Origin: an uncultured Methanosarcinales archaeon
GTDB taxonomy: Archaea; Nanobdellota; Nanobdellia; Woesearchaeales; GCA-2686295
DNA length: 64,000 nucleotides
NCBI GenBank assembly: GCA_964402995.1
Contig: CAYOEA010000009.1
Location: forward strand, 4,974-68,973
Reading direction: 5' to 3'
A model generated the notes under the pieces. That model was not told the origin of the DNA and did no database searches. It worked only from the letters and a program-made list of their open reading frames with translations. Shown here one piece after another: positions 22,131-26,003 of the stretch. The translations under genes and the position numbers were made by a program. The number at the start of each line of letters is the position of its first letter. Position 1 is the first letter of the stretch.

Positions 22131-24617
22131 CTAACCATTAATTTTATATCTTCCATGTTTTTTTAAAATTTTATCAGGTACTGTAAAATTAAACATATTC
22201 CAACAATTCAATAATTCTTCAGGATTGCCTATTTCATGTAACTTTATACTAGGAATTAATCTATCATAAGCTTTGTAAAGATTTAGAGGTCTACCACCAT
22301 TTAAGCTCATATTATTCAATAACATTCCTAAAGCACGACTTGTTTCAGCAAGGGATATATTTCCGGGAATAATTCCTAAAAATGCTTCTTGATTATTATC
22401 AAGTCTTCTAAATCCTTTTTGCGAATTCATTATATGATATATTCTTTCTGAATCAAAATATGCGAGTGATTTTAAATATTTATTTTCAGTAAATTCATAA
22501 GTCAAAACTCTATTATTATTTCCCTTATCAATATAAATTCCTAACATTTCATTTACAGATTTATCATAAAATTCAGACAGAACAATGATAGATGAAACAA
22601 TTTTGTTAGCATGAATTATTCTTGGTTCCAATCCTCCAAATGAATTAGTATGATAAGCTCCTTTTTTAGATGGATTTGAAGTTATTGGTGAGACTTTCGG
22701 ATGAAGATGATTAACTATTGATTTATCTTCACTTATCATAGTTGACGAATTATCTTGATTAAGTTTTGCTTTCATTTCTTTTTTCGAGAAAACTTTCACC
22801 CCAAAAGACTCTAAATATTTGTCATTTGTTACTCTCGTAACTTTTGGTTTTAAACCTGCAAAATGATCATTTATTGTTGAAACTATATTAACAAATCTTG
22901 AATTAGAATATATAGATAAAGAATTAAGTCCTTTTGACAATTTTAGAACTTCAGCTGAGAAATTTATTGGTTCTAAAAGTAGAAAATTCTCATCATTAAA
23001 ATCAATTCGATTAAATTCTCCATTAACATTTTCTTCTATTGAGAAAATTTTTGTTTTTTCAAAATATTTTTTATGAGTTCCTTTATAATGTATTTTTAGT
23101 TTTCCAGCCTGATCTTTTTGTATAACTAATAAACCGTTTTGTAAATTTTTTGAGGTGGCAGAACTTTGAAAACTAACTACTACTTCATCACTAGTTGCTA
23201 AAGGATATTTTATCCAATCATATTCAAGCCCTGTTTCTTGAACTAATAATTCAATTGTATTATCAATTAATTCATGATCTATTTCAGTATTAAAAATAAA
23301 AGGTAAACAATTTATCTTCTGTAATTGTTTATTTACAAACGAATAATCTTTTAATCCGAAAAAACCTAAAGTTCTTTCCCTGGTTGAAGCTACAGCTTTA
23401 GAAATAGAAGTTTCATTTAAATAATCATAAATGATTTCATGCAGAGGAAACATTCTTGGAATATTATCTGCAAGCATTCTAATTGTAATGGGAATAGAGA
23501 TAGGTTTCTCAACAGACATATTTTCTATTGGACTAATACCATTGAATAAAATATCATTTTGATCAAATCTTACTAGAACATCATTTTTATATGTACTTGA
23601 TAAAATTACTTGTTCTACGCCTACTTTATCTTTATATTCACCTTTATAACTCTGTTCAATTCTTAATCCATTTGAATCTAAAGACTTGAAAGCTAAAACT
23701 CCAACTAATTTATTTTTTGGTCCTCTTTTAGAATTAATATTATCATTTCTAGATTTAAAAAATTTTGCAACACCAGATTGATACCCTGAAGAAAAATACT
23801 TAATAGTATCAAATGCTAATTCTGATTCAGTTATGAATTTTGTTATTACTTCTTTAACTTTATCAACATTTACAGTAATATCAGTTATCTCAAAATCTAA
23901 TGATTTATCTTTTAACATGATTTGATCCAGCTTACGACTTTGTTTATTAGCATATGAAAAATCTATGGTTTCTTTCTTTTGTTGTAATTCTGCAGCGCCT
24001 TTTTCATAAAGTTCTAAAAAATCAATTTTTTTTGTTGAGGTATTCTCCTTAGCTCCAACTATTTCATCTGAAATTGATGAACCTTCATTATCTGAAGCAA
24101 ATTCAAAATTCATTTTTGAAGGTATAATTCTTGAACGATTTCTCTTTGTATTCTTTACAGTTTGTGCAACATCTTTTACAGTTAAGTTTTCTGGTTCATC
24201 AGATTCTTCATTTTGTATAGACTTTAATGGTTTAAAATATGCTCCAAGACCTAAACTTTTTGATTCAGATTCATTTAATTTAACATATTTCGTATTTGAT
24301 TCATCCCACATAAAATTAAATAGTTTCTTTTCTGGTTGGTTTTCTTTTACTAATCCTCTGTAAGAAATAAATTCTAAGAAATCAAATTCATCAAACTTCA
24401 AAACAGAAGTTCCAATTACATTATTATTTGCAACGAAGGTTAAATAATATATTTGATCTTCAATTTCGGGAGAATATAATTTAGATTTAATATCTTCATT
24501 AAAGCCAATACTATTTTTTAATTCATTTATTACTAAGACCAATTCATCAATTTTTGGATGAAATGATGGTTCAAGATGACTATTATTCAATCTTGTTATA
24601 AGGTCTTTACTTTGCAT
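22131..24617 (-). CDS. Large hypothetical protein
   Basis: 828-aa open frame just downstream of tRNA-Arg; no motif recognised. Confidence 0.65.
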   Translation of the reverse strand: MQSKDLITRLNNSHLEPSFHPKIDELVLVINELKNSIGFNEDIKSKLYSPEIEDQIYYLTFVANNNVIGTSVLKFDEFDFLEFISYRGLVKENQPEKKLFNFMWDESNTKYVKLNESESKSLGLGAYFKPLKSIQNEESDEPENLTVKDVAQTVKNTKRNRSRIIPSKMNFEFASDNEGSSISDEIVGAKENTSTKKIDFLELYEKGAAELQQKKETIDFSYANKQSRKLDQIMLKDKSLDFEITDITVNVDKVKEVITKFITESELAFDTIKYFSSGYQSGVAKFFKSRNDNINSKRGPKNKLVGVLAFKSLDSNGLRIEQSYKGEYKDKVGVEQVILSSTYKNDVLVRFDQNDILFNGISPIENMSVEKPISIPITIRMLADNIPRMFPLHEIIYDYLNETSISKAVASTRERTLGFFGLKDYSFVNKQLQKINCLPFIFNTEIDHELIDNTIELLVQETGLEYDWIKYPLATSDEVVVSFQSSATSKNLQNGLLVIQKDQAGKLKIHYKGTHKKYFEKTKIFSIEENVNGEFNRIDFNDENFLLLEPINFSAEVLKLSKGLNSLSIYSNSRFVNIVSTINDHFAGLKPKVTRVTNDKYLESFGVKVFSKKEMKAKLNQDNSSTMISEDKSIVNHLHPKVSPITSNPSKKGAYHTNSFGGLEPRIIHANKIVSSIIVLSEFYDKSVNEMLGIYIDKGNNNRVLTYEFTENKYLKSLAYFDSERIYHIMNSQKGFRRLDNNQEAFLGIIPGNISLAETSRALGMLLNNMSLNGGRPLNLYKAYDRLIPSIKLHEIGNPEELLNCWNMFNFTVPDKILKKHGRYKING

Positions 24618-24685
24618 TTTAACTTTCTTAAACTAAAGAGGTATTTAAACCTTACCTAACAATTACTATTTGAGAGTAGAAAATA

Positions 24686-24918
24686 CGAACCCAGGGGGAC
24701 TTTCATAACGAATCCACATAGTTTTCCACTAAGTAAGATTTCGCAAAGCGAATATCTTACCGACGCTAGCCGTCAACGAGTATTCATTGTTTTGAACCCC
24801 CGATCTACAGCTTACTTCTAAAATAGCAAAATAAATGCTAAATTTATAGGAGGCTGTCGCCTTATTTGCCCAAAAAAACTGCTAAAACAGTTTTGTTACC
24901 AGACTAGGCTATAGGTTC
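24686..24918 (-). tRNA. tRNA-Arg(CCT) with three introns: 24866-24898 (19/20), 24813-24846 (37/38), 24700-24790 (59/60)
   Basis: Exons join to GAACCTA TA GCCT AGTCTGGATA AGGC G ACAGC CTCCTAA GCTGT AGATC GGGGG TTCAAAT CCCCC TGGGTTC G (75 nt), with A20 and G73; BHB-like motif at each junction. Confidence 0.9.
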
Positions 24919-24998
24919 GCACAAAGAAATAGATTAGCATCTTCTTTTTAAACTTTTTTTAAACAAAGATTTATATAGCTAAAATAAATATTTATCAC

Positions 24999-26003
24999 AT
25001 GAAGAAAAAGTGGATTGTCTTAGGATCAATCTTAGCAGGAATTGCTGCACTTTGGATTATTCTTAAACAAATTCCATTTAAAGAAATAATAAACTTATTC
25101 TCCAATTCTTCACCATTAATAATTTTAGGATACATTGGAATCTCAGTATTAATTATGTTATTCTTAGCTTTAAGATGGAAAATTATTCTTAAAAGTAAAG
25201 GTTACAACGTTTCATTATTCAAACTATTTTCTTATCGTATTGCAGGCTACGGTGTTAGTTATTTAACTCCAGCTGCAAAACTCGGAGGAGAACCTGTTAG
25301 AGCAGGATTATTATCTAGAGATGGAATATCATTCTCAGAAGGATTATCTACAATTATAATTGATAAAACTATCGAAATTGCAACTAATGCACTTTTCTTT
25401 TTCATCGGAGTAATGATTGTATTATTCTCATTTGCAGTTCCTGGTCAAGCGGAAATTATGATGTTATTATTCGCACTAATTTTCTTAGGATTAATGTTAT
25501 TTATTTATCATAGACTTGTTTCAGGAAAAGGTTTTATTAAGAGTCTTGCTAATAAATTCAAACTTTCAACAACCAAGGTTTATAAAAAAAATAAAGTGAA
25601 AATATTAGAGTTTGAGAGCGCAATAATCAAATTTTTTAAACATGATAAAAAAGATTTCTACTTAAGTTGTGTAGCATCATTCTTTTCATGGGTTTGTATG
25701 TTTGTAGAGTATAAATTCGCAGGTTTAATTCTCGGTTTTGATTTCACATTTGTTCAAATATTTTTAATTGTAAGTTTTATTGGTGTTGCAATGATGATCC
25801 CAATACCAATGGGTCTTGGGTCAATGGAATTATCTCAAGTAACAGTATTCGCACTTTTCAAAATGGGCCAAACAGGCGGAGTTGCACTTGCATTCCTTGT
25901 TAGAGCAAGAGATTTATTGTGGAGTGTTGTCGGACTTATAATTCTTAGCTTCTATGGATTAAATCCTAGAAAGTTTATTGAGAAAGAATACGAAAATAAC
26001 TAA
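24999..26003 (+). CDS. Flippase-like membrane protein (lysylphosphatidylglycerol synthase TM / UPF0104)
   Basis: RWKIIL, SYLTP.AKLGGEPVRA, IPIPMGLGSME; multiple TM helices. Confidence 0.88.
   Translation: MKKKWIVLGSILAGIAALWIILKQIPFKEIINLFSNSSPLIILGYIGISVLIMLFLALRWKIILKSKGYNVSLFKLFSYRIAGYGVSYLTPAAKLGGEPVRAGLLSRDGISFSEGLSTIIIDKTIEIATNALFFFIGVMIVLFSFAVPGQAEIMMLLFALIFLGLMLFIYHRLVSGKGFIKSLANKFKLSTTKVYKKNKVKILEFESAIIKFFKHDKKDFYLSCVASFFSWVCMFVEYKFAGLILGFDFTFVQIFLIVSFIGVAMMIPIPMGLGSMELSQVTVFALFKMGQTGGVALAFLVRARDLLWSVVGLIILSFYGLNPRKFIEKEYENN

Follow-up and report, generated by a model that had tools for sequence, protein, structure and literature searches.

The closest described case to the intron reported here is that of the transposed BHB introns of the Thermoproteales, in which large-scale intron transposition among tRNA genes was described by Fujishima et al. 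(2010, Mol Biol Evol), as relayed in a 2014 review (PMC4090602). That review gives the transposition mechanism as unknown and presumes that it operates at the DNA level. A 2026 preprint on Asgard archaea, in which several arrival routes were tested, states that 'how they arrive remains open'. The 91-nt T-loop intron of a tRNA-Arg(CCU) gene within the 64,000-nt stretch of DNA analysed here (the window) shares several features with the introns of the Thermoproteales: homologous introns (near-identical in Thermoproteales) occupy BHB sites, including non-canonical positions, in non-orthologous tRNA genes, and their gain is recent among close relatives. The family to which it belongs, from Nanoarchaeota (DPANN), differs in that it also occurs outside introns between duplicated targets and has a covarying core of three hairpins. 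Its intronic copies all lie at position 59/60, except for one distant member at 53/54, and carry a strand of their own for pairing with the universal T-loop.

Other systems resemble the family in part. According to the reports on IStrons and eukaryotic introner elements (PMC4227781, PMC11282704), these too are mobile DNA neutralised by RNA splicing; the element described here differs from them in measuring only 65–91 nt, in having neither ribozyme nor transposase gene, and in that a host protein endonuclease would splice it at a BHB. REP/REPIN and MITE-type repeats are likewise small, hairpin-rich, non-coding and dispersed, with patchy copy numbers. The element differs from them in lacking terminal inverted repeats, in the long and variable duplications of its targets, in strongly preferring tRNA gene ends, and in that no Y1/RAYT transposase is consistently present or placed beside copies. 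Casposons generate target duplications of 14–15 bp and insert at the 3' ends of tRNA genes; the element shares duplications of about 15 bp and tRNA 3'-end targets, but is roughly 100 times smaller and lacks terminal inverted repeats, and Cas1 is encoded in only one of the five carrier genomes tested. Finally, the tRNA-Trp intron of Euryarchaeota, which contains a box C/D sRNA, is another unusually long and structured tRNA intron. It lies in the anticodon loop, whereas the present intron lies in the T-loop and has neither C/D boxes nor guide complementarity. Literature searches found no description of this DPANN family or of BHB-intron relatives flanked by target-site duplications (TSDs). As set out below, the 91 nt constitute a BHB intron of tRNA-Arg(CCU) and at the same time belong to a family of small structured elements of Nanoarchaeota (DPANN) that are probably mobile, non-autonomous and selfish.

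The tRNA-Arg(CCU) gene and the anatomy of its T-loop intron

The tRNA-Arg(CCU) gene occupies positions 24686–24918 of the window on the minus strand, as do all window features given below, and comprises 233 nt, of which about 75 nt form the mature tRNA. Its reverse complement, read by hand from 24918 to 24686, provides a 7-bp acceptor stem with one G-U pair, the discriminator G, a D stem of 4 bp, an anticodon stem of 5 bp and a T stem of 5 bp, all G-C. The unspliced gene was not called by ARAGORN and not matched by Rfam; for annotation, this means that standard tools overlooked this tRNA altogether. After in-silico deletion of the 91-nt T-loop piece together with 31–37 nt of the D-loop, ARAGORN recognised tRNA-Arg(cct), reporting the canonical 34-nt intron as i(38,34), and the spliced T-loop measures 7 nt. 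The gene thus contains three introns: one of 34 nt at 37/38 (24813–24846, coordinates assigned by hand), a D-loop intron (24863–24898) of about 33 nt whose boundaries slide by 3 nt, and the T-loop intron (24700–24790) between positions 59 and 60. For the last of these, the preliminary description had given exactly these coordinates.

The D-loop intron merits separate mention. Its 3' end (24863–24870 in the window; also L005 and L008–L016) is the same over about 9 nt in Arg tRNAs from many families of the order, with interiors ranging from about 13 to more than 90 nt; it appears to be an old intron site at which the 3' splice context is conserved. A CUGAUGAG motif, resembling a C box or a hammerhead core, was seen in the D-loop intron of a tRNA-Arg(TCT) in another genome (L027:100–140; G052 contig C26).

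Together with its exons, the T-loop intron forms a strict h-B-H-B-h' motif. The T stem supplies the 5-bp outer helix h (24797–24801 with 24694–24698). In the central 4-bp helix H, the exon sequence UUCA, T-loop nucleotides 54–57 (24793–24796, contiguous with the T-stem strand in 24793–24801), pairs with UGAA near the 3' end of the intron (24702–24705). The two three-nucleotide bulges, AAA (24790–24792) and AGU (24699–24701, adjoining UGAA in 24699–24705), contain the predicted 5' and 3' splice sites, respectively. The inner helix h' consists of 24782–24788 and 24707–24713, with seven of seven pairs formed, and is kept in intronic relatives, partly with the register shifted by one.

Between these boundaries lie three hairpins. 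P1 (24775–24788) has 5 bp and the loop AUAC; it is 96–100% paired across copies, with three to four pairs double-changed. P2 (24762–24774) has 4 bp and the loop GCUAG, which is GCUAA in most copies. P3 (24733–24760), of 7 + 5 bp with one bulged A, is the most variable and best covarying helix (96% paired; 11 of 12 pairs double-changed). It is followed on its 3' side by the single-stranded sequence UAGUGG (24726–24731), conserved in alignments A2 and A3. P1 and h' share one 5' strand (24782–24788); in every intronic copy each partner covaries with it, and both occur in the fold ensemble. All three helices of the nested arrangement in the preliminary description are present (basal, 24782–24788/24707–24713; 4-bp, 24762–24774; long, 24733–24760), and the two inner ones covary across 28 homologues. 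Its basal helix holds as h', but the description overlooked P1, the local and likewise covarying alternative. The predicted folds are more stable than those of shuffled sequences: the folding energy is -23.1 kcal/mol for the intron by itself (z -2.39; equalled by 5 of 200 shuffles) and -33.8 kcal/mol when the T arm is included (z -3.68; equalled by none of 200).

Several further structural readings were considered. A candidate pseudoknot, in which the P2 loop would pair with the UAG that follows P3, was considered by eye; its three candidate pairs are invariant and speak neither for nor against it. A base of the P2 3' strand and a base of UAGUGG (columns 26 and 62 of A2; seen in A2 and A3) change together, C with G and U with A, in at least five copies and in both P3 subtypes; judged from the alignments, the pair could be a tertiary contact or a subfamily marker. 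Hammerhead, k-turn and tRNA-like readings of the core were judged by eye and dropped, the defining motifs being absent. The 3' part of the intron bears some resemblance to a relic of a duplicated T arm, but H tracks complementarity rather than duplication.

The unusual length and structure of the intron had also suggested a box C/D or other antisense guide RNA, comparable to the tRNA-Trp intron of some Euryarchaeota. These two properties are all that speaks for such a role, which we regard as extremely improbable. Among 29 family members, none combines a C box (RUGAUGA) close to the 5' end with a D box (CUGA) close to the 3' end, and the longest antisense match to the SSU, LSU and 32 tRNAs of this genome is 7–8 nt (criterion, at least 10 nt), equal to that of shuffled controls. 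No Rfam family, snoRNA-type families included, matched the intron at gathering or relaxed thresholds. The guide function put forward in the preliminary description is not supported, and the complementarity to rRNA or tRNA proposed there as a check does not exceed chance.

Family membership and distribution among tRNAs and congeners

BLAST of 60 relatives with the tRNA was the starting point for defining the family; the intron part matched in several congeners, often in more than one place per genome. A covariance model of the three hairpins (R1) was built from 11 aligned copies (A2), in which 97.3% of cells are paired and 12 pairs are double-changed, compared with 28–42% paired in slid controls. 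Among 28 model-aligned copies, 93.3% of cells are paired and 16 of 21 pairs are double-changed, with a covariation score reached by none of 500 shuffles. The order of the core is P1 (loop AUAC), P2 (loop GCUAA), long P3 and UAGUGG. The intron itself scores 97.7 bits against R1.

All genomes compared are draft MAGs. R1 found copies in six of nine genomes of the genus, this one included, and in neither of two genomes of the sister genus. Of 150 additional genomes sampled from the order, G051, which belongs to another family, contains 13 copies and nine more gave weak matches; no match at E <= 1e-4 came from another 150 genomes sampled from the phylum. The conserved 5' pattern of the element was unmatched in viral contigs. 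Within this genome (G000), plain BLAST of the intron returned chance matches only (a 15-nt sense match on contig C3 is ordinary A+T-rich sequence), and R1 detected two additional, degenerate, non-intronic copies of 47.6 bits each, at C3:22793–22868 (minus strand; L038:1501–1576) and C1:101365–101439 (L042:1501–1575). The inner hairpins, for which a search for further copies had been proposed, have no separate exact copies here; it is the whole element that recurs, twice in degenerate form in this genome and in many copies in relatives. That the short P3 core forms an abundant hairpin repeat of its own was rejected, with five matches in this genome against about 12 expected. Outside the archaeal genomes, a 5-kb contig binned as Candidatus Yanofskybacteria (MGIZ01000043.1; L070:4290–4530) carries a tRNA of archaeal appearance whose T-loop intron, about 170 nt long, consists of two element cores in tandem; this contig, assigned to a CPR bacterium, is probably misbinned.

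Within tRNA genes, the family is found at 59/60 in many different tRNAs. In-silico splicing followed by ARAGORN identified Ala(GGC), Val(TAC), Lys(CTT), Arg(TCT), His(GTG), Ser(GGA), an Ile-like tRNA and Ala(CGC) as hosts; once Arg(CCT) here is added, about nine tRNA species of congeneric Nanoarchaeota (DPANN) carry the family at this site. In G001, a second Arg(TCT) host was recognised by eye. The BHB motif is present in all 12 intronic members: h and the bulges are kept throughout, and H is fully paired (4/4) in 11. H covaries with the T-loop, UUCA occurring with UGAA and UUCG with CGAA. As H follows the T-loop sequence, the 3' end of the intron is tuned to exon pairing. Over its full 91 nt the tRNA-Arg(CCU) intron aligns with introns of other tRNAs; its closest relatives, with 83% identity, interrupt Ala and Val tRNAs in two other genomes. 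A length of exactly 91 nt recurs in five intronic copies and reflects their recent common origin. In a tree of 29 copies (64 columns, weak support), the introns are not clustered according to host tRNA, and at least four changes of state are needed to account for the interleaving of intronic with non-intronic copies. The distant member of the family that lies between T-arm positions 53 and 54 is at L047 (G057 contig C32).

At the orthologous tRNA-Arg(CCT) gene, presence of the intron varies within the genus. Four of seven genomes, this one counted, lack a T-loop intron there (G001, G003, G006 and G007), G007 being without any intron, and the other lengths are 91 nt here, 134 nt in G008 and 218 nt in G002. 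Intron length, which the preliminary description had proposed to compare among relatives, is therefore not fixed: it is 0, 91, 134 or 218 nt at one site in one genus. The tRNA gene in G003 adjoins a homologue of the gene neighbouring it here (53% amino-acid identity), and this common neighbour indicates that the two loci correspond. At 59/60, the order's other Arg tRNAs carry unrelated introns of about 22–170 nt. We propose that the 91-nt copy in tRNA-Arg(CCU) was gained within the genus.

The same comparison bears on the possibility that the palindromic double-hairpin repeat of the window expanded, at this site, a short T-loop intron of ancestral origin. This repeat family lengthens introns in congeners: the orthologous introns of G002 (L028, contig C163) and G008 (L098, contig C69) contain it, and a 22-nt intron at 59/60 in G023 resembles the basal helix alone. 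For the 91-nt intron, however, such an origin is very improbable. An HMM of the four window copies of the repeat found no match in 24600–25000 at E values up to 10, with L028, L096 and L005 as positive controls, and local lengthening would not account for an alignment with introns of other tRNAs over the full 91 nt. The earlier suggestion that the intron was built from a repeat is thus borne out to the extent that its whole core is a copy of a dispersed structured element; it is neither a one-off expansion nor derived from the double-hairpin repeat.

Selection on the RNA is suggested by the G-U and A-C pairs in the stems. Intronic copies have 10 G-U against 3 A-C pairs, and non-intronic copies 17 against 14 (small numbers); a G-U excess confined to intronic stems points to RNA-level selection on structure while the element is an intron. 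Most simply, this selection would arise from folding needed for splicing. Together with the conserved loops and junctions, the excess leaves room for an RNA function, and the core could be a functional small RNA, for example a stable circular or protein-binding one, whose gene rides in tRNA introns, leaders and trailers for release by EndA, RNase P and RNase Z, so that its conservation would reflect function and not mobility. Consistent with this are the conserved loop sequences AUAC, GCUAA and UAGUGG, the strongly covarying stems, the recurrence of exactly 91 nt and the location of most non-intronic copies next to tRNA genes. We nevertheless consider a functional RNA rather unlikely. Several copies are antisense to the adjacent tRNA or lie at the starts or ends of protein genes, the two extra copies in this genome are degenerate (47.6 bits), neither Rfam nor the rRNA and tRNA comparisons returned a match above chance, and the patchy presence among congeners, both at the orthologous tRNA and in whole genomes of the genus and sister genus, argues against an essential role of the excised RNA.

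Copies outside introns and their target duplications

Twenty-two copies lie outside T-loops, and 15 of these are flanked by a direct repeat of at least 14 nt, mostly within a few nucleotides of the element ends; at random sites of the same geometry the median was 9 and the 99th percentile 14.8. Among the 22 are the two degenerate copies of this genome. The duplications are 12–20 nt long, and once 44 nt, although some of the longest stem from tandem arrays of a 'duplication plus element' unit, which blur the lengths. The duplicated piece is nearly always the first or last 12–20 nt of a gene. The targets include the 5' end of a tRNA up to the D-loop, the part of a tRNA that begins in the T-loop and runs to the 3' end (in either orientation) and, in two protein genes, the start codon together with about 13 nt. 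On contig C3 of this genome, the final ~44 nt of a protein gene are present on both sides of the element, and the reading frame of the gene keeps nearly the same C-terminus. In the congener G001 the corresponding gene end is single, with neither element nor duplication, but the intergenic spacer also differs, so that this empty site is an imperfect one. The copy on contig C1 has no clear duplication.

Tandem units of target duplication plus element occur at L060 and L064 (both G051), and at L054 (G093) the repeated unit is the element with a whole tRNA gene; unequal recombination between duplicated pieces would explain such arrays. A separate locus, L094 (G007 contig C4:3880–4130), has a tRNA-Arg(TCT) followed by a different hairpin element of about 55 nt and then by a 12-nt re-copy of the tRNA 3' end. 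This is the same insertion signature in another element family.

No terminal inverted repeats were found in the element, the best terminal match being 4–6 nt and equal to that of shuffled tails, and no neighbouring ORF is common to the copies. Taken together with the duplications, these two results point to DNA-level insertion of a non-autonomous element. Missing terminal inverted repeats and variable duplication lengths fit no known transposase. The search for a mobilising enzyme was negative. Among five carrier genomes, a reverse transcriptase was found in two (G002 and G006; none in this genome, G001 or G051), Cas1 in one and a Y1 transposase in two (G051 and G002). None of the three was found in this genome or adjacent to any copy in carriers, and the flanks of the Y1 genes in G051 and G002 contain no convincing element copy within 1.5 kb.

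The ends of the non-intronic copies raise the question of direction. Within the genus, these copies start at the same nucleotide as the intron and are without its last ~20 nt, and many have an A-rich stretch directly before the downstream duplication; over the last 20 nt of 14 copies, A outnumbers T by 124 to 78. Such features, along with the variable duplication lengths, apparent microhomology at some 5' junctions and the reverse transcriptases of G002 and G006, would be compatible with the reverse course of events, in which an old T-loop intron was the source and the non-intronic copies are SINE-like retro-copies of the excised intron RNA made by target-primed reverse transcription. We judge this course unlikely. 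Reverse transcription from the 3' end should truncate 5' ends, not 3' ends; the enzyme was not found in this genome, in G001 or in G051 with its 13 copies; and the A-rich tail is not universal, two copies ending T-rich. Moreover, the genomes are about 70% A+T, and A-rich ends are for that reason weak evidence for retro-copying.

Predicted splicing, proposed spread and the origin of archaeal tRNA introns

The enzymes that splicing would call for are encoded in this genome. A single gene (L080:1126–1785; G000 contig C2) encodes a splicing endonuclease, EndA, of 220 aa and alpha type, with an N-terminal and a catalytic domain (PF02778 and PF01974 among its matches), and the RtcB ligase (PF01139) is also present. 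In DPANN lineages, alpha4-type EndAs have been linked to heavily disrupted tRNA genes (Kaneta et al., PMC5829648). Only one EndA gene was found, alongside tRNAs with introns in the D-loop, the anticodon loop and the T-loop. From this complement, we infer that EndA and RtcB could excise the 91-nt intron and rejoin the tRNA.

Given a spliceable mobile element, the following course of events may be envisaged. The element would spread at the DNA level. Its intronic form ends in YGAA, which is complementary to the near-universal T-loop start UUCR, and a second strand of the element pairs back to its own 5' end; combined with the T stem, the two strands complete an h-B-H-B-h' motif in almost any tRNA at 59/60. 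Host alpha-type splicing endonuclease and RtcB would then cut the element out and rejoin the tRNA. If the element is indeed spliced out, an insertion that would otherwise kill the tRNA becomes neutral. The insertions that survive may accordingly be only those that leave one intact gene copy or can be removed by splicing, and the conserved hairpins may serve propagation of the element or its recognition by an enzyme, not a cellular function. Its selfish character, like the direction and mechanism of its movement, is something we infer from this pattern of insertions.

A broader interpretation is offered more tentatively, as a possibility that we find attractive without holding it to be the probable one: the family may show archaeal tRNA introns being born. 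A DNA-level mobile element that brings its own half of the BHB motif, in the form of a strand complementary to the universal T-loop, would be spliceable at once when inserted at 59/60, and elsewhere would survive only where duplication restores the gene end. Such an element would be a prokaryotic, protein-spliced counterpart of introner elements, moved by an enzyme that makes long duplications.

The family bears on the question of how tRNA introns arrive in archaea. One and the same family is found in both states, as a BHB intron that occupies one position in about nine tRNAs and as a simple insertion with duplicated target DNA on either side; sites are filled in some congeners and empty in others. 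This makes the origin of these introns testable.
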